Positions 1-15,951 of a DNA stretch of 64,000 nt are shown here, piece after piece. Where the stretch lies: contig CAWCNY010000002.1 of assembly GCA_963797095.1 (NCBI GenBank), forward strand, positions 1,280,001 to 1,344,000, given 5' to 3'. Each line of letters opens with the position of its first letter. Position 1 is the stretch's first letter. The position numbers and the translations under genes are program-made. The notes under the pieces were generated by a model. That model had not been told where the DNA came from, did not search any database, and saw only the letters and a program-made list of their open reading frames with translations. Source of the DNA: an uncultured Chloroflexia bacterium (GTDB taxonomy: Bacteria > Chloroflexota > Chloroflexia > QHBQ01 > JADMIH01).

Positions 1-111
1 ACTCGAACCCTCGACCCGGCCGTTAGTAGCGGTAACCATCAGCCACCGGCCCCCGTGGGGCAAATACCGGTAATGGCTTTAAACCTGCTCTGCCATCTGA
101 GCTACGTCCCC
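1..111 (-). tRNA. tRNA-like gene (anticodon ACT after removing a 51-nt insert at 33-83), 3' end cut off by the window edge
   Basis: Minus strand: GGGGACG-TA-GCTC AGATGGCA GAGC-A-GG|51 nt|CCG CTACTAA CGGCC-GGGTC-GAGGG TTCGAGT. Removing the insert restores a perfect GGCCG/CGGCC anticodon stem. Confidence 0.75.
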
Positions 112-182
112 TGGGTTTGGACGAAAGACGAAGGACGTAGGACGATGGTTGTCGTCCAGGGTCTTGTCTAGCGTCCGGTTGT

Positions 183-428
183 CAGGAAGGAAATAGTCAA
201 TATTTGCTTTCAGGAATTGCCCGGCAGTGCCGGACCATTGCATTAATGGGTAACCTGAATGCGCCGTCCCAGATCCTTCACCGATGTTCGATGGTGGCCC
301 TCTATCGCGCCGAGCGCCGTAGGCACGTCCGGGCCTACGGACGGGAATTGAACCCGCGTGTTACCTGCGTACTCAACTACGACCTGCCGCCATGAGATAG
401 CCGGTGCCGACCGGCCGACCATCTTCTG
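183..428 (-). ncRNA. Structured RNA with a circularly permuted tRNA domain (YrlA/Y RNA-like candidate)
   Basis: Minus-strand order: T arm GCGGG TTCAATT CCCGT (357-341), closed acceptor-like hairpin CCGTAGGC-8 nt-GCCTACGG (340-317), D-like arm GCTC..GAGG (315-299). The ends can pair (GATGGTCGG with TTGACTATT). Boundaries approximate. Confidence 0.55.
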
Positions 429-434
429 ATAATT

Positions 435-534
435 GGAGGAAAGCAAGCAGTCAAAGCACGCGTTGGGCCTGCGGACGCGTTACCCGCAGTTATGGTTGCG
501 AATGATACCCCATTGGCAACGTACCGCTTTCTCC
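435..534 (-). ncRNA. Putative ~100-nt structured RNA, or the 5' domain of the 183-428 RNA
   Basis: Terminal pairing GGAG-AAAGC/GCTTT-C-CTCC; internal hairpins GTTGC..GCAAC and CTGCGG..CCGCAG; TTGACT near the 3' end; no credible ORF. Confidence 0.4.
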
Positions 535-543
535 TGTATGTAT

Positions 544-678
544 TGGGGATGGCAGGATTCGAACCTGCAAGAGCTTGTGCTCACTCGTTTTCAAGACGAT
601 AACCCTCAGCCTTCGGCCCCCATGGGGCAAGGTATGGTGACGGTGTATTAGCGCGTTTGCCATTTCCGCCACATCCCC
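544..678 (-). tRNA. tRNA with TGA (Ser) anticodon and Leu-like body, interrupted by a 51-nt insert (600-650)
   Basis: GGGGATG-TG-GCGG AAATGGCAAA CGC-G-C|51 nt|TCGT CTTGAAA ACGAG-long variable arm-GCAGG TTCGAAT CCTGC-CATCCCC-A. Confidence 0.8.
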
Positions 679-691
679 ACGATTATTGTGT

Positions 692-809
692 TGGAGCGCC
701 CGATAAGAATCGAACTTACGGTAACCATCAATCCGGCGGCCCTGGAGGTTCTTGAGGTCCTGGAGGGCAAAGATTGGAGACGGGTGCTCTCCAATCGAGC
801 GTCGGGCGC
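692..809 (-). ncRNA. Anticodon-less tRNA-like RNA with encoded CCA; anticodon arm replaced by a Y-RNA-like hairpin
   Basis: GCGCCCG/CGGGCGC-T-CCA acceptor, GCTC..GAGC D arm, GTAAG TTCGATT CTTAT T arm. Between D and T arms: CCGT..CAATCT TTGCCCT-loop-AGGGCCG CC GGATTG ATGG TTA. Confidence 0.75.
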
Positions 810-810
810 A

Positions 811-887
811 TGGTGCTTGGGGTGGGGGTTGAACCCACGACCTCCTGCTTTTCAGACAAGCGCTGCTACCAACTGAGCTACCCAAGC
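811..887 (-). tRNA. tRNA-Phe(GAA)
   Basis: Cloverleaf, loop CTGAAAA, encoded CCA. Confidence 0.93.
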
Positions 888-992
888 GGGCAAACATGAA
901 ACGTGAGGACGAAGGATTAGATTACGAGTGACGAATGACGAATGACGAGTGATTACGCAATACGCAGTACGCAATAGGTCCTGTCTCACGAT

Positions 993-1067
993 TGGTCTGG
1001 ATGGAGAGGATCGAACTCCCGATCTCTAGCGCCCAAGGCTAGCGTGTTCCCGCTACACTACACCCAG
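993..1067 (-). tRNA. tRNA-Pro(TGG)
   Basis: Cloverleaf, loop CTTGGGC, C1:G72, A73, CCA. Confidence 0.92.
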
Positions 1068-1107
1068 ATATGGTTATATCTCGTCCATCGTTCTTCACCG
1101 TTCGTTG

Positions 1108-1183
1108 TGGCGGCCCGTAGGGGAGTTGAACCCCTCCTTTCGACATTGACAGTGTCGCGTCTCGTCCACTCGACCAACGGGCC
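1108..1183 (-). tRNA. tRNA-Asp(GTC)
   Basis: Cloverleaf, loop CTGTCAA, G73, CCA. Confidence 0.92.
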
Positions 1184-1256
1184 AGTTCGATTTTGGATTT
1201 TAGATTGGGGATTTTGGATTGAAGTCGTAGCAATTCCGAAATCTGAAATCCGAAAT

Positions 1257-1332
1257 TGGTACAGGGGGGCAGATTCGAACTGCCGGCCACTCGCGTCCGA
1301 GGCGAGTACGCTTACCACTGCGCTACCCCTGT
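1257..1332 (-). tRNA. tRNA-Pro(CGG), atypical A1:U72
   Basis: ACAGGGG/CCCCTGT-A-CCA acceptor, loop CTCGGAC. Confidence 0.88.
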
Positions 1333-1351
1333 ATGCATGATTTATTTCTTG

Positions 1352-1422
1352 TTCCGGGGCAAGGATTCGAACCTCGCTCTGCCGGTTCAAAGCCGGCGAT
1401 CTTACCGCTGGACGACCCCGGA
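1352..1422 (-). tRNA. tRNA-Gln(TTG)
   Basis: TCCGGGG/CCCCGGA acceptor, loop CTTTGAA; CCA not encoded. Confidence 0.9.
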
Positions 1423-1485
1423 AGGATGATGATGACGGGGACGATGCAAGAACGTAAGCGTTGCCGACTATCGGCTACTTCCTTT

Positions 1486-1563
1486 TGGTGAGCGTTGGAG
1501 GACTTGAACCTCCGGCCTCCAGGTTCGCGGCCTGGTGCTCTGATTCCACTGAGCTAAACGCTC
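1486..1563 (-). tRNA. tRNA-Arg(GCG), C33
   Basis: CCAGG CCGCGAA CCTGG anticodon arm, full cloverleaf, CCA. Confidence 0.88.
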
Positions 1564-1597
1564 GTGTTGTCTGTGCTCTTGTCCATGGCCCACCGGG

Positions 1598-1668
1598 CAG
1601 TGAGGGAGGGAGTCGAACCCCCATGGACCGATTAACAGTCGGTTATCTTACCTTTAGATGACCTCACT
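1598..1668 (-). tRNA. tRNA-Asn(GTT)
   Basis: AGTGAGG/CCTCACT-G acceptor, loop CTGTTAA; CCA not encoded. Confidence 0.88.
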
Positions 1669-1686
1669 ATTGTCTTGTTATGCGGG

Positions 1687-1772
1687 CGGGTCGGGTGGGA
1701 TTTGAACCCACTTGCGTCCAAGACGCACTTGTTTTACAGACAGGCCCGGCTACCCGTATCCGGCTCCGACCC
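1687..1772 (-). tRNA. tRNA-Tyr(GTA), G73
   Basis: Loop CTGTAAA, long variable arm TGCGTC-TTG-GACGCA, T arm GTGGG TTCAAAT CCCAC. Confidence 0.87.
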
Positions 1773-1858
1773 AAGTTGTTGCGGTTGAAAGATGATTATT
1801 GGCGAGTGACGAGTGACGAATGACGAGTTCTGGAAATCGGCAATCTAAAGTCCGCGAT

Positions 1859-1934
1859 TGGTGGACAGCCAGGGATTTGAACCCCGAACATTCTCGGTGT
1901 AGGCGAGACGCTCCATCCGTTGAGCTAGCCGTCC
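1859..1934 (-). tRNA. tRNA-Val(TAC), C33
   Basis: TCTCG CCTACAC CGAGA, cloverleaf, CCA. Confidence 0.88.
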
Positions 1935-1947
1935 ATTGGAAGGGCGC

Positions 1948-2023
1948 TGGTAGGGTGTGCGGGGATCGAACCCGCGATCTACTCTTTGAAAGAGAGTTAT
2001 CCTGACCACTAGACGAACACCCC
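1948..2023 (-). tRNA. tRNA-Glu(TTC)
   Basis: Loop CTTTCAA, cloverleaf, CCA. Confidence 0.92.
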
Positions 2024-2034
2024 ACAGGGTTGAT

Positions 2035-2112
2035 TGGTAGCGCATGAGAGATTCGAACTCCCGGTCTCCAGGCTGAGAACCTGGCGTCCTGGGCCAGCTA
2101 GACGAATGCGCC
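2035..2112 (-). tRNA. tRNA-Glu(CTC)
   Basis: Loop TTCTCAG, cloverleaf, CCA. Confidence 0.92.
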
Positions 2113-2192
2113 GTGTTGTTACGGACGAAGGATGGCGGTTTGCCACCTGCTGTTCTTTCGTCGTCCGTCTTTAGTATTTTGTCCGCAGAAAG

Positions 2193-2264
2193 AGGTGCCG
2201 AGGGGAATTGAACCCCTGGTTAGCCGGGTTGCAGCCGGCCGCCTTACCACTTGGCTACGGCACC
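2193..2264 (-). tRNA. tRNA-Cys(GCA)
   Basis: Loop CTGCAAC, U73. Confidence 0.92.
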
Positions 2265-2271
2265 GCTTGGG

Positions 2272-2347
2272 TGGTGGAGCAGGGGAGATTCGAACTCCCA
2301 TCTTCCTCGTTGCAGGCGAGACACTCTGCCATTTGAGCTACTGTCCC
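2272..2347 (-). tRNA. tRNA-Ala(TGC), C33
   Basis: G3:U70, A73, loop CCTGCAA, CCA. Confidence 0.9.
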
Positions 2348-2418
2348 GTTTTGGTAGTCGGTAGTCGGTAGGCGGTAGTCAGATGGTATTTTACTGATAA
2401 CTGGCTGCCGAGCTTTTG

Positions 2419-2492
2419 TTTCGCGGAGCGGATTCGAACCGCTGGTCCCCTGGGTCACAGTCAGGTGCTTTTGCCGCTAAGCTACCGCGAAC
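2419..2492 (-). tRNA. tRNA-His(GTG), G-1 with A73
   Basis: Loop CTGTGAC; G-TTCGCGG/CCGCGAA-A. Confidence 0.86.
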
Positions 2493-2573
2493 ATGTGGTT
2501 AGACGATAGACGATGGACGAAAGTAAAGGTGAGCTTTCGTCGTCCGTTGTTCGTTTTTAGTCTGATGCACCGG

Positions 2574-2644
2574 TTCCGTGTCAAGGATTCGAACCTCGTT
2601 CTGCTGGTTCAGAGCCAACTGTCCTACCGTTGGACGAACACGGA
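2574..2644 (-). tRNA. tRNA-Gln(CTG)
   Basis: TCCGTGT/ACACGGA acceptor, loop CTCTGAA. Confidence 0.9.
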
Positions 2645-2747
2645 ATATGATGGATCCTTGGATACTGCGTAGTGCTTATTTCGTATTGCATGTCGGTGCG
2701 AGATTATTCCGCACTCTATACTCCGCATTCCGCATTTGAGTGTGGGG

Positions 2748-2821
2748 CGCACCCAGAGAGATTCGAACTCCCGGCCCGCTGGTTCGAAGCCAGCTGCTCT
2801 GTTCCACTGAGCTATGGGTGC
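2748..2821 (-). tRNA. tRNA-Arg(TCG)
   Basis: Loop CTTCGAA, cloverleaf. Confidence 0.92.
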
Positions 2822-2872
2822 AGGATAGTGCGTATTGCGTACTGCTTATCGCTTACTTCGCATATACAGATT

Positions 2873-2948
2873 TGGTTGCGGAGGAGGGACTTGAACCCTC
2901 GATCTGGTCATTATGAGCGACCCGCTCTTGCCGCTGAGCTACTCCGCA
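2873..2948 (-). tRNA. tRNA-Met(CAT) (Met/fMet/Ile2 not resolved)
   Basis: Loop CTCATAA, TGCGGAG/CTCCGCA-A-CCA. Confidence 0.9.
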
Positions 2949-3013
2949 ATGGTGGGTGAGAGACGCAGGATGAAGGATGAAGGATGAAGGATGAAGGATT
3001 AAGGATGATAGCG

Positions 3014-3090
3014 TGGTACCGGAGGAGAGATTCGAACTCCCAACGTCTGCGGTCTGAGCGCAGTGTGTCTACCAGTTGCACCACTCCGGC
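3014..3090 (-). tRNA. tRNA-Leu(CAG) with short variable loop
   Basis: CTGCG CTCAGAC CGCAG, then only ACGTT before the T arm; A73, CCA. Confidence 0.87.
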
Positions 3091-3189
3091 ATATCTTAGT
3101 GACAAATGACGAGTGACGAGTGACAAGTGACTGGATAAGCAGTAAGCACTAAGCAATAGGTCACGTATCACGTATCACGTTTCACGGGT

Positions 3190-3264
3190 TGGAGCGGTAG
3201 TAGGGATTCGAACCCTCATCTCCTCCATGGCGCGGAGGTGCTCTGCCGGTTGAGCGACTACCAC
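3190..3264 (-). tRNA. tRNA-Gly(GCC), G32/C33
   Basis: CCTCC GCGCCAT GGAGG; U73, CCA. Confidence 0.86.
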
Positions 3265-3305
3265 ATTTTTGCGGATTGGCGTTTTGGGGGTTTCTTCCGC
3301 AAGGG

Positions 3306-3377
3306 CACAAGCGGTAGGATTTGAACCCACATCCCACAGTTTTGGAGACTGGTGCTCTCCCATTGAGCTACGCTTGT
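3306..3377 (-). tRNA. tRNA-Trp(CCA)
   Basis: Loop CTCCAAA, G73. Confidence 0.9.
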
Positions 3378-3614
3378 ATGCAGCGAGCAGACCAGGCATG
3401 CCTTCACGCTTGGGCTTTACGATATGTGCGGCCCGCGCTGGACTCCAGGCACACCTGGCGTGTCTGCTCACTCTTTTTATTCGCGATCCATCTTCTACTG
3501 TTAAGGTGCACGGTCTGCCGTGGACTGCCGGCGCTTTCTTTGTTTTATTGTCCTATTCGGGTTATTTACTTCTATGTCGCCCGTCACGGCTTTCCGTCTG
3601 CATCGACAGATGCA

Positions 3615-3690
3615 TGGTGCCCCCGGCAGGGTTCGAACCTGCGCCTCACCGATTAAGAGTCGGTTACTCTTCCTGCTGAGTTACAGAGGC
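3615..3690 (-). tRNA. tRNA-Lys(CTT), first tRNA of the array
   Basis: Loop CTCTTAA, cloverleaf, CCA. Confidence 0.92.
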
Positions 3691-3775
3691 TTGCATATTG
3701 CGCTGTTAATTGAGAGAGCCGCCTGGCTCTTTCGCCGGGCGGCCCTGGTGAACATATATGTACATGCACCTTGAG

Positions 3776-4057
3776 CTATCCGGCGATTACCTCCCAACCA
3801 AACGTGCGATTAAGGGCCTGGGTCAGATCCAGGGCCAATGCTGCTGCTGGGCATAGGGAGGCGGCTATACAATTGTCATAGACAGGTTGTGATAATTCGG
3901 CTTCACACATACACGTCGCTTCACTGATTCTTGGCGTCTTCCTTGAGCGTAAACGCTTCCAGGTGTGATCGGCGTGTGTAGAGAGAGGCCAGCGCGCGTC
4001 GTGTGACGGCTCACGCAACTCATCTCTGTATGTTTGGCCGATCCAGATCGATTTCAT
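3776..4057 (-). CDS. Short hypothetical or leader ORF upstream of the tRNA array
   Basis: 93-aa ORF with ATG after AAGGCAAAGCC, followed by a GC hairpin at ~3714-3744; no recognisable domain. Confidence 0.35.
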   Translation of the reverse strand: MKSIWIGQTYRDELREPSHDARWPLSTHADHTWKRLRSRKTPRISEATCMCEAELSQPVYDNCIAASLCPAAALALDLTQALNRTFGWEVIAG

Positions 4058-4078
4058 GGCTTTGCCTTGCTAACTAAA

Positions 4079-4104
4079 GAGCGGCTCCTGTTCGGGGCCG
4101 CTCC
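4079..4104 (-). terminator. Putative terminator/attenuator hairpin
   Basis: Minus strand GAGCGGCCCC GAACA GGAGCCGCTC followed by TTTAG. Confidence 0.5.
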
Positions 4105-4140
4105 AGCTTTTGTGGCTTGCATTTTGTGAGGCAAATTACC

Positions 4141-4386
4141 TCACATTACGTTTTGCTTACCTCTGGAGCGGTCGCCCACCCTCATCCACGTATCTCGCGG
4201 GAGTTGGGGTCTGGCGATACCTTCGATATTCAGATAAAGATTCCATTCGTGCTGTGAATAGCTCCTGGCGATTGATGGCGATATGCTCGCAAAACAATTC
4301 GTCTGGACAGACAACCACAACCCATTCTCATAAGAAGGGGCTTGTGTGCTATTACATTGTCTGGCGCTCATGGTCACGGGGAGCAA
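4141..4386 (-). CDS. Short hypothetical or leader ORF
   Basis: 81-aa ORF; AAAGGAG lies near possible GTG/ATG starts; no recognisable domain. Confidence 0.3.
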   Translation of the reverse strand: MLPVTMSARQCNSTQAPSYENGLWLSVQTNCFASISPSIARSYSQHEWNLYLNIEGIARPQLPRDTWMRVGDRSRGKQNVM

Positions 4387-14068: not shown

Positions 14069-14773
14069 ATGTTTGATAAGTCGGCTCGCTTCTATGATGC
14101 TGTTTATGCGTGGAAGGACTATGCGGGCGAGAGTGTGCGGCTGCATACTTTGATAGAGGAGAAGGCGCAGAGGCTAGCGGGTACGTTGCTTGATGTGGCT
14201 TGCGGCACCGGGGCGCATCTGGCTTACCTTCGGGAGCACTATGAGGTGGAGGGGCTTGACCTGAATGCTGAGTTGCTTGATGTAGCTCACGAGCGTTTGC
14301 CAGGGGTGCCTCTGCACCTGGGGAATATGCTCGATTTTGATCTGGGACGCACGTTCGATGTGGTGACCTGCCTCTTCTCGGCTATCGCTTATGTCGGGAC
14401 TATCGATAATCTGCATATGGCGGTGGGCAATTTGGCCCGGCACGTCGCGAAGGGCGGGGTTTTGATTGTTGAGCCCTGGGCCGCGCCTGATGGATTTGTG
14501 ATTGATGGCAAGCCCCATGCGCACTTCACCGATTGGCCTGATGTGAAGGTTGCGCGGATGAGTATGAGCGCAAAGCGGGATAACATATCGGTGCTGCACT
14601 TTCATTATCTGGTTGGGACTCCTGAGGGCATTGACTACTTCACTGAAACACATGAATTAGGGCTGTTCACGCATGCCGAGTATTTGGACGCGTTCAAGAG
14701 CGCGGGATTTGAGGTGAGCTACGACCCTGAGGGGTTGATGGGGCGCGGACTGTATATCGGCGTTAGTTCTTAG
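14069..14773 (+). CDS. Class I SAM methyltransferase (TylM1/DesVI-like)
   Basis: YD..Y..KDY, LDVACGTG, VTCLFSAI, EPW, GRGLYIG. Confidence 0.85.
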   Translation: MFDKSARFYDAVYAWKDYAGESVRLHTLIEEKAQRLAGTLLDVACGTGAHLAYLREHYEVEGLDLNAELLDVAHERLPGVPLHLGNMLDFDLGRTFDVVTCLFSAIAYVGTIDNLHMAVGNLARHVAKGGVLIVEPWAAPDGFVIDGKPHAHFTDWPDVKVARMSMSAKRDNISVLHFHYLVGTPEGIDYFTETHELGLFTHAEYLDAFKSAGFEVSYDPEGLMGRGLYIGVSS

Positions 14774-15832
14774 CTTCGTTCTCCATTCGCTTGTGCAGGA
14801 GGATCAGCACCGCCGCTTCGTCGGGGGGTAGCCCATCCAGTTCTCTGGCTATGGATTTCTTTGGCGGGGTTTGCAGGTCGTCGAGAAGAGTGCCCTCGAG
14901 GTAGGATCGATTATGGCGGGGTGGACGTAGCATTTACGGCAGATGGCGGGGGTATTGCCGAGGCGGGCGGCTACCTGGTCTACGGCGACTACTACGTTGT
15001 GCCTGGACTCGGTTTTGGTGTTGGCGGGTTCCATCTCCTGAAGGGCGGCGGCTGCGAGCACGGTGCCTGCCCAGGTTCTGAAGTCCTTGGCGGTGAAGTC
15101 GTGGCCGCTGATCTCTTTGAGGTAATCGTTTACGTCGCCTGAGTCTATATTGTGGCGCTGGCCGTCGTCATCAACGTAGCCGAATAGCTCCTGGCCGGGG
15201 AGGTCCTGGCAACGCCTGACGACGCGGGCAAGACGCCTGTCTTTGACGCTTATGCTGTGGGTCTTGCCGCTTTTGCCTCTGAACTTGAAGCGGAGTTGAG
15301 CGCCGTCTACTTTGACGTGCCTGTTGCGCAGGGTGGTGAGGCCGAAGGATTTGTTGGCGCGGGCGTATTCCTCGTTTCCTACACGGATGAGGGTGGTTTC
15401 GAGGAGGCAGACCACGGTGGCAAGCACCTTCATGTGGGGAAGGCCGGAGAGGGCCATATCGTGTTCGACACGCTCGCGGATGGCGGGGAGGGCTTTGCCG
15501 AAATCGATCATCCGCTCGTACTTGGCCTGGTCGCGTACTTCGCGCCACCTGGGATGGTAGCGGTACTGCTTGCGGCCTTTGTCGTCGAGGCCGGTGGCCT
15601 GGATGTGACCGTTGGGGATTGGAGAGATCCAGACCTCGCGCCATGCGGGAGGGATCACGAGAGCTTTAATGCGGGCGAGGGTCTATTTGTTGGTGACAGG
15701 CTCACCGTCGGGGTTGGTGTAGTGCCAGCCTCTGGCGGCGCGCCTGCGCTTGATGCCGGGCCTTTTGTCGGTAACATAGCGCAGGTGGGCTTCTTTGGCC
15801 GCTTCTCTGGCTTCTTCCTGTATGCTTACCAC
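14763..15832 (-). pseudogene. DNA topoisomerase IB, disrupted (in-frame TAG at 15683-15685; 1-bp deletion near 14905)
   Basis: IPPAW, GRKQYRYH, IRVGNEEY, FRGKSG, KDFRTW, LGNTPAICRKCYVHP. The N-terminus LRYVTD..PGI is in frame before the TAG; the C-terminus YLEGTLL..EAAVL is in a shifted frame. Confidence 0.85.
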
Positions 15833-15951
15833 TGGTTGATCCTTTCTATGCCGGTGGAGTTGAGGGATGCGTGTACCTTTGGGTAGTTATTTCGTGTTTT
15901 TGCCGGGTTTGGGTGGCTCTTGTTGTGAGATGGTTGAATTTTCCCCCGTTA

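Follow-up and report, generated by a model that had tools for sequence, protein, structure and literature searches.

What is encoded on the minus strand at positions 183-428 of a 64,000-nucleotide stretch of contig CAWCNY010000002.1 (hereafter the window), from an uncultured Chloroflexia bacterium? The sequence lies within an array of genes for tRNAs and for Y RNAs, which are small RNA partners of the bacterial Ro60 protein Rsr. The distance to the rsr gene downstream is about 1.5 kb, and the orientation is shared with rsr. A sequence-only reading had proposed one RNA of about 245 nucleotides (nt) with a permuted tRNA domain and possible stacked pseudoknots, either an expanded Y RNA or a large array-associated RNA. 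We favour a different answer, with a confidence somewhat above even: the stretch consists of two tandem, diverged Y RNA paralogues and a tRNA relic, in a tRNA/Y RNA array that runs into rsr and then into rtcB. Instead of a single RNA of about 245 nt, we find two self-contained domains of about 100 nt each beside the relic. The link to Y RNAs drawn by the earlier reading holds: a cluster of Y RNAs is located 1.5 kb upstream of rsr, the 3' end carries TTGACTA, with TTGAC(T/C) being the 3'-strand motif of the Y RNAs neighbouring the stretch, and a T arm is followed by a closed hairpin.

Two Y-RNA-like units and a tRNA relic

The stretch was compared with three covariance models that we built from Y RNAs of related loci. 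R1 represents 35 canonical YrlA RNAs (23 pairs, 16 with double changes), R2 represents 14 Y RNAs from 13 loci that have a T arm and no D arm, with the element itself excluded, and R3 represents 28 small Y RNAs from rsr loci. The insert-bearing tRNAs named below are tRNA-shaped genes with an extra arm. The parts of the stretch are as follows.

420-394, minus strand: remnant of an insert-bearing tRNA, namely of its T arm and 3' acceptor strand (local alignment, collinearity)
392-292, minus strand: unit 1, paralogous to the Y RNAs that have a T arm and no D arm (R2 match, fold)
392-367 with 318-292, minus strand: closing stem of unit 1, enclosing the T arm and the closed hairpin (R2, fold)
392-386 with 298-292, minus strand: lower stem of unit 1, TGGCGGC with GCCACCA, 6 of 7 pairs (R2 alignment, fold)
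357-341, minus strand: T arm GCGGG-TTCAATT-CCCGT (R1, R2, pair probability)
340-317, minus strand: closed 8-bp hairpin CCGTAGGC-CCGGACGT-GCCTACGG with an 8-nt loop, abutting the T arm; the AS stem-loop of Y RNAs
314-300, minus strand: CTC-GGCGCGATA-GAG, formerly taken for a D arm, reread as 3' strand of the unit 1 closing stem
279-186, minus strand: unit 2, a small-Y-like hairpin (fold, upper helix, collinearity)
279-274 with 191-186, minus strand: 6-bp closing stem of unit 2, GAAGGA with TCCTTC
270-264, minus strand: 5' module of unit 2, GGGACGG
262-254 with 214-206, minus strand: upper helix of unit 2, GCATTCAGG with CCTGAAAGC
253-249, minus strand: TTACC of unit 2
249-235 and 233-221, minus strand: apical hairpins of unit 2
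200-195, minus strand: TTGACT, 3' strand of unit 2

R2 aligns with unit 1 over the full model length (1-97) at 32.5 bits, with an E-value of 6.4e-7 in 3.4 kb and 1.2e-5 in the 64-kb window, values that are rough as for all our self-built models, given their short calibration. Unit 1 is the best R2 match in the window and ranks fourth among the Y RNAs of the locus (58.9, 49.0, 37.9, 32.5, 29.3 and 28.0 bits). Of the 21 pairs in the model, unit 1 forms 20 as standard pairs. When folded by itself, it reaches a minimum free energy of -43.3 kcal/mol. The T arm, the closed hairpin and a closing stem (4+3+5+7 pairs) all form in this fold, and these three elements appear in the centroid folds of both the whole stretch and unit 1 alone. 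Within the closing stem, GCTCGGC (315-309) pairs with GTTGAGT (377-371) and GCGAT (308-304) with GTCGT (383-379). The T arm has five pairs and a consensus T loop (pair probability 0.73-0.87), and the hairpin next to it has eight perfect pairs (0.63-0.83), so that both of these parts of the proposed permuted tRNA order stand.

The D arm does not. It consists of a 3-bp CTC/GAG stem around a 9-nt loop that is unused by the fold; its pair probability is 0.0 when unit 1 is folded alone and 0.037 within the whole stretch. A fold made to include it is less stable by 6.3 kcal/mol (-37.0 versus -43.3), neither R1 nor R2, the models that cover the region, aligns 314-300 as a D arm, and its bases find their partners in the 5' strand of unit 1. 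Since the D arm fails, a full permuted tRNA domain is absent. This bears on the idea that the stretch is a permuted tRNA gene and that ligation of its processed halves, for example by the RtcB of the locus, yields a working tRNA. The T arm followed by 3' and then 5' acceptor strands in permuted order and the RtcB ligase gene in the locus would fit such a gene; against it, a credible D arm is missing, as is an anticodon arm with a 7-nt loop, tRNA models score at noise (the sole Rfam match inside 183-428 is tRNA-Sec with 15.8 bits, E 5), and Y RNAs of 13 related loci normally have this very layout. We regard this explanation as next to negligible.

In sequence, unit 1 is about 40% diverged from its best relatives. 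Its upper helix is changed yet paired, its 8-bp hairpin is perfect and of unique sequence, and all eight T-arm positions that are invariant in the alignment of the 14 R2 sequences (A4) are kept. Unlike the R2 Y RNAs, unit 1 lacks the conserved Rsr-module sequence (G-G-N-N-CG core, GGGTTAYC, CTTGNCC): TACG is changed to CAGG, GGGTTATC to GAGTACGC and CTTGAC to AGAGGG. Judged by sequence, unit 1 is an RNA with the predicted fold of the D-arm-less Y RNAs of this clade, from which the Rsr-module sequence (TACG core, GGGTTAYC, CTTGAC) is lost.

Unit 2 is enclosed by the GAAGGA/UCCUUC stem and contains, in this order, GGGACGG, GCAUUCAGG, UUACC, two hairpins, CCUGAAAGC, AAAUA and UUGACU. The predicted fold has a free energy of -33.9 kcal/mol. 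Its upper helix forms 8 of 9 pairs at an offset of 5, the usual offset of the small Y RNA family. In 21 of 28 small Y RNAs at rsr loci, the 9-mer before TTAYC pairs at 8 or more of its 9 positions with a 9-mer that lies 3-7 nt before the 3' strand, while cross-sequence controls do so in 13.5%. The family structure covaries, with 88% of cells paired versus 72.3% in shuffles and a covariation score of 0.514 versus 0.226 (0/500 shuffles as high). The lower stem was the selection criterion for this set (7/7 pairs) and is 100% paired by construction, so that the upper helix alone is independent evidence. RNAalifold on a MAFFT alignment of the small Y RNAs returned only the lower stem, with the 3' side misaligned, and the structure was then supplied by hand. 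Unit 2, in the sense of a putative assignment, is best described by the layout of the small Y RNAs beside rsr (5' GGGNCG, nested upper helix, YUAY, 3' UUGAC), from which it departs by a bulged A, an interrupted lower stem and extra hairpins.

The order of the parts is also found in relatives. An nhmmer search against 80 rsr loci and the loci of two chance-level DNA matches gave a best E-value of 0.0013, in L007, which prompted a test of collinearity by pairwise local alignment; L007 and L009 denote the rsr loci of two related Chloroflexia assemblies. Window 436-170 is collinear with L007 5690-5960 (score 88; shuffles 49.2 +/- 6.7) and with L009 4560-4830 (score 86; shuffles 46.4 +/- 6.7), and 0/200 shuffles reach the score in either case. 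These shuffles, like those for the tRNA relic and for the duplex energies below, keep mononucleotide composition only. In both loci the target is a cassette just upstream of rsr that consists of the 3' end of an insert-bearing tRNA, a Y RNA with T arm and closed hairpin, and a small Y RNA, with which unit 2 is collinear. Pairwise alignments with L006 (1/200 shuffles reach the score), L014 (2/200) and L013 (27/200) are weaker.

Because of this collinearity with the L007 and L009 cassettes, we assign 420-394 as a relic of a tRNA end. Aligned locally with the L007 segment that spans the tRNA 3' end and the Y RNA start, it scores 32, and 0/300 shuffles reach this value. The T loop is lost and a GC hairpin, GCCGGT-CGGC-ACCGGC, is found at 415-400 instead; the CCA region is deleted. 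The start of the canonical Y RNAs, ATGGCGG, which is common to the canonical Y RNAs of relatives, is kept at 393-387.

All strings named in the sequence-only reading are present on the minus strand. The first three had been paired, in the same order, with the second three.

386-381, minus strand: CAGGTC
375-367, minus strand: TGAGTACGC
365-360, minus strand: GGTAAC
275-270, minus strand: GATCTG
264-256, minus strand: GCGCATTCA
254-249, minus strand: GTTACC
200-195, minus strand: TTGACT

These non-nested pairings are at chance level, each with an ensemble probability of at most 0.006. Among 500 dinucleotide-preserving shuffles (helices of at least 5 bp, G-U allowed), 70.6% reach the best same-order chain of the real sequence (27 bp observed; shuffle mean 31.2), and the real sequence holds 123 such helices against a shuffle mean of 137.6. 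CAGGTC and TGAGTACGC sit in the 5' strand of the unit 1 stem with partners GCGAT and GCUCGGC at 315-304, and GCGCATTCA pairs in a nested manner with CCTGAAAGC at 214-206 (8/9 pairs, probability 0.90-0.99). Stacked pseudoknots are thus unsupported, because the pairings do not exceed chance and the strands find better partners in nested helices. As a whole, the 266-nt stretch shows no unusual stability (z -0.72; 42/200 shuffles fold as well or better).

We consider it very improbable that the stretch encodes a new tRNA-array RNA in the manner of GOLLD or ROOL, large, structured and with stacked pseudoknots; this reading is already disfavoured. What speaks for it is limited to the three pairs of complementary segments and a position amid tRNAs. 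The chance-level pairs speak against it, as do linkers of 1-2 nt, which would be sterically implausible given the geometry of H-type pseudoknots, and the homology to Y RNAs, which explains both halves. Kinship with GOLLD, ROOL or permuted tmRNA finds no echo in Rfam, where none of these gives a match at E <=10 in window 1-1000.

A single expanded Y RNA of about 200 nt deserves more attention, although we consider it improbable as well. Its ends would form the Rsr-binding stem, through AGUACG (373-368) with UUGACU (200-195) or GGCAGG (388-383) with CCUUCC (190-185), and T arm, closed hairpin and the remainder would form one effector module. As read from the sequence, AGU-A-CG/UUGACU mirrors the bulged core GGU-A-CG/UUGACC of the neighbours, and the canonical YrlA model R1 aligns with 390-183 end to end. 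This R1 match reaches only 14.3 bits (E 0.017 in 20 kb, again roughly calibrated) and ranks tenth, with chimeric alignments and a tRNA pair among the entries above it; the R1 alignment needs an 89-nt insertion in the D arm. The distal duplex of -17.3 kcal/mol is no better than shuffles (36/300 as good), a test of little power, since the intact neighbouring Y RNA, Y0, is itself no better than shuffles (141/300). Further, no lower stem lies beneath the AGU/ACU core, positions 374-367 correspond by homology to the GGGTTAYC motif and not to the core, and each half has its own closing stem.

Maintained fold or decaying copy

The main rival to two diverged paralogues is plain decay of a duplicated cassette. 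Here, 420-186 would be a dying copy of the cassette of insert-bearing tRNA, Y RNA and small Y RNA, with intact copies nearer rsr, and both units would be pseudogenes whose hairpins are not yet eroded. We hold this to be possible, if rather unlikely. Several observations favour it or weigh against our own reading. The piece directly upstream of unit 1 is a clearly decayed tRNA end, having lost its T loop and CCA region. Both Rsr-binding modules are damaged: unit 1 keeps 8 of the 15 module positions that are invariant in A4, and R3 gives no match to unit 2 at E <=1 in 3.4 kb, with only a local match of 7.0 bits to model positions 13-61. The motif table, built from 66 R2 matches in 38 sources (64 distinct), makes unit 1 the single outlier, as it is the sole distinct member without both GGGTTAYC (YUAY) and the 3' TTG strand. 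All three motifs are found in 54/66 rows and at least two of the three in 62 of the 63 other distinct matches; the core flag of this table is loose and fires on the shifted GGTCG of unit 1. The canonical strand pair (GG[TG][AC]CG 5' core, TTGNCC 3' strand) occurs in at least six further Y RNAs of the locus, five of which carry all three motifs, with Y0 lacking GGGTTAYC, and a Mutator transposase is nearby. The fold z-scores are modest, with -1.56 for unit 1 (15/200 shuffles as good) and -1.93 for unit 2 (7/200), and no sign of expression was found.

Neither unit showed an orthologue in 41 genomes, 80 rsr loci and the pattern scans, so that there is no covariation for these very sequences. The genomes comprise 40 relatives, 24 of them of the same genus, and the genome of the window itself; they include the unpublished genomes G021 and G022, which enter only this DNA search and the genus-wide Rsr count given below. 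Searched with the element as DNA, the 41 genomes yield only two matches of 25-30 nt, at chance level. An exact-pattern scan of the genome collection returns one match, the small Y RNA of L009. For metagenomes, the first pattern has no match; the second is found in at least 120 stretches, and in none of the matches listed does a T loop lie upstream, so that these were set aside as chance matches. Three soil DNA sequencing runs give no cover of 183-428.

Against decay stands the pattern of what is kept. Unit 1 forms 20 of the 21 model pairs despite its divergence, and unit 2 keeps its upper helix, two hairpins and the 6-bp closing stem, whereas random erosion is expected to break helices as fast as motifs. 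Because both units keep their helices, we read them as diverged yet structurally maintained RNAs and not as debris.

If the two paralogues are functional, the units would be transcribed together with the tRNAs as one precursor and may be released from it by tRNA-processing and trimming enzymes. Unit 2 could still dock on Rsr via its bulged stem. Unit 1 would offer a tRNA-elbow-like T arm to a partner, and its binding to Rsr may be weak, altered or lost. A bolder version, which we consider unlikely, takes unit 1 as a Y RNA released from Rsr that has kept its fold and T arm and would act alone, as a decoy or adaptor for a tRNA-elbow-binding partner of Y RNAs. Together with the insert-bearing tRNAs, the segment would then represent a living intermediate in the interconversion of YrlA and tRNA via tandem copies and circular permutation.

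Comparison with known Y RNA families

Chen et al. 2014 (PMC4201824) describe YrlA by its location near rsr, by YUAY and the 5' motif GNCGAAN0-1G, and by the stem-loops V, T, AS and D; Wang et al. 2018 (10.1101/312249) add a UA linker and conserved D and T stems. As in YrlA, the stretch lies less than 4 kb from rsr and shares its strand (unit 2 has its 3' end at window 186 and rsr starts at -1358, both minus), the T arm is followed by a closed stem-loop at the place of the acceptor stem, and the ends close the molecule. Unlike YrlA, unit 1 has no D arm, its linker is CG and not UA, and the 5' motif and YUAY appear to be lost: GUCGUAG stands in a shifted register and GAGUACGC at the place of GGGUUAYC. 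GACGGCG and UUAC are present in unit 2. The D stem GCUC/GAGC is found in 30-35 of the 35 sequences in our canonical YrlA alignment.

The Rfam YrlA model RF02553 gives no match at E <=10 in window 1-1000 and none at E <=1 in L005 13500-17000; the bit score noted above was reached only with our own R1. As a positive control, RF02553 scores canonical YrlA RNAs of the Verrucomicrobia locus L085 (3866-4000, 4295-5517) at 32.5-40.8 bits, below its gathering score of 69. In the same locus, the Deinococcus Y RNA model, with a gathering score of 80, gives 48.5 bits to a D-arm-less Y RNA. As these L085 scores remain below gathering, curated thresholds miss most Y RNAs in these phyla.

The order of elements in unit 1 (closing stem, T arm, closed hairpin, 3' strand) is that of Yrn1 from D. 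radiodurans (RF01053) and of the Chloroflexia and Verrucomicrobia Y RNAs represented by R2, although RF01053 itself has no match to the stretch. For Yrn1, a T stem-loop and no evident full D arm are reported by Chen et al. 2014 (PMC4201824). The predicted layout of unit 1 is closer to this D-arm-less kind, of which Yrn1 is the described example, than to YrlA. Unit 2 shares with the small Y RNAs beside rsr the 5' GGGNCG module, an upper helix that directly precedes TTAYC and a normally spaced 3' TTG strand, and differs from them in the bulged residue (A in place of their C), the interrupted lower stem and the two additional apical hairpins. These small Y RNAs are YrlB-like by position.

Bacterial Y RNA tethers Rsr to PNPase, as stated with reference to earlier work in Chen et al. 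2014 (PMC4201824). The same source describes that RNase P cleaves YrlA of M. smegmatis and that CCA is added. The closed stem of a Y RNA can thus act as an acceptor stem, which fits the insert-bearing tRNAs of our locus with their open acceptor stem; nothing in this analysis points to cleavage of the 8-bp hairpin of unit 1.

The array, its insert-bearing tRNAs and the rsr leader

ARAGORN predicts 21 tRNA genes at window 811-3690, all on the minus strand. An Rfam scan at gathering thresholds recovers 20 of these 21 and nothing in window 1-810. Just upstream of the stretch lies Y0, which has the canonical GCGGTACG 5' strand and CTTTGACTGCT 3' strand, GGGGTATC where the family has GGGTTAYC, and no T arm. 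Beyond the window start, further tRNA-like and Y-RNA-like elements follow on the minus strand, including five further Y RNAs and one small Y RNA, up to the rsr open reading frame from window coordinate -1358. An intact Y RNA of this neighbourhood is located at L005 15099-15203. This reading frame (-1358 to -3019, minus strand) matches Pfam TROVE (1.6e-47) and vWA_Ro60 (6.2e-64), on the basis of which it is assigned as Rsr. Past rsr we find the Mutator-family transposase, an HNH endonuclease gene, four tRNAs (Ser, Lys and two Ile) and then the RtcB ligase gene, split by an intein.

445-529, minus strand: Y0, neighbouring Y RNA (R2, 29.2-29.3 bits)
about -1325 to -1357 (L005 about 14643-14675), minus strand: rsr leader hairpin
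L006 5948-5975, L007 5958-5985, L009 4828-4850 and others: rsr leader hairpin of relatives (pattern)
L005 5416-7935, outside the window and beyond rsr, minus strand: RtcB RNA ligase gene split by an intein (Pfam RtcB 4.7e-91, Intein_splicing 5.1e-22)

The closest Rsr loci in the genome collection belong to Chloroflexia assemblies (69-76% identity), and Rsr is present in 11 of 26 genomes of the genus, at 67-77% identity. A consensus scan of window 1-4200 detects no promoter-like or terminator-like site on the minus strand. Cataloguing the Y RNA 5' modules (G-G-N-N-C-G, 6-12 nt, GGTTAYC) in this and related loci reveals many Y RNAs upstream of rsr, with GGYGGTACG or GGGCCG as 5' strand and CTTGACC, CTTGCCC or CTTGTCC as 3' strand. 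Several spacers between tRNAs and Y RNAs are filled with short tandem repeats (window 900-960 and 1185-1260; L006 4690-4780 and 5555-5630), for example GACGAAT units, and GGTACTC units in L006.

The tRNA-shaped genes of the locus that carry an insert are located on the minus strand at window 693-810, 544-680 and 1-115 (extending to -12) and at L005 15207-15324 and about 15785-15900. Examples in relatives are L007 5485-5606, L009 4461-4581 and L013 5730-5850. Besides the D and T arms and an acceptor stem that is open, they possess an extra arm, 45-55 nt long and placed between nucleotide 26 and the anticodon stem, which repeats the Y RNA stem in closed, circularly permuted form (CTTGCCCC-loop-GGGGCCG-N8-10-GGTTAYC); A-CCA often follows directly after the acceptor stem. 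Default ARAGORN misses them, and with its intron option they are called as tRNAs with 'introns' of 31-51 nt; the Rfam tRNA model scores two of them at 41.8 and 45.1 bits. When 24 such tRNAs from 16 loci of several phyla are aligned, covariation is seen in the acceptor, T and insert helices (26 pairs, of which 18 show double changes). With a loose script, 27 of 81 loci give 44 matches, some of the Verrucomicrobia rows being false; an anticodon-like loop of 7 nt is present in 22 of the 44, with triplets that vary, and the anticodon arm is absent from 7. Canonical YrlA is a circular permutation of this insert-bearing tRNA design: a tandem pair contains YrlA between two hairpin loops.

The rsr leader of the window's own genome contains the same closed hairpin as these tRNA inserts, TTGCCCC-N3-GGGGCCG, which runs directly into the AAGGAG ribosome-binding site and the start codon. 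The pattern occurs in 8 of 69 loci, seven labelled Chloroflexia or Chloroflexota (L006-L009, L011-L013) and one labelled Armatimonadaceae, while Verrucomicrobia rsr leaders have another conserved hairpin instead. The hairpin looks like an Rsr-binding site on the protein's own mRNA, and autoregulation of rsr is therefore possible. We found no description of the insert-bearing tRNAs or of this leader hairpin in the literature searched; the supplements of Chen 2014 and Wang 2018 and the review of Sim and Wolin 2018, which may list Chloroflexi Y RNAs or discuss tRNA-linked ones, lay outside its scope.

Taken alone, the element is a modest addition, namely two odd members of the Y RNAs. Its surroundings outweigh it: genes of tRNA shape whose extra arm is a closed copy of the Y RNA stem occur here and in many related loci, and the matching hairpin over the ribosome-binding site of rsr is likewise of more weight than the element. 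What the element itself provides is a natural experiment, in which a Y RNA fold with helices and T arm kept and the Rsr-binding consensus lost stands in one locus beside copies that keep the Rsr-binding strands. It therefore offers a ready-made test of which parts of a bacterial Y RNA serve Rsr binding and which serve its tRNA-like function.

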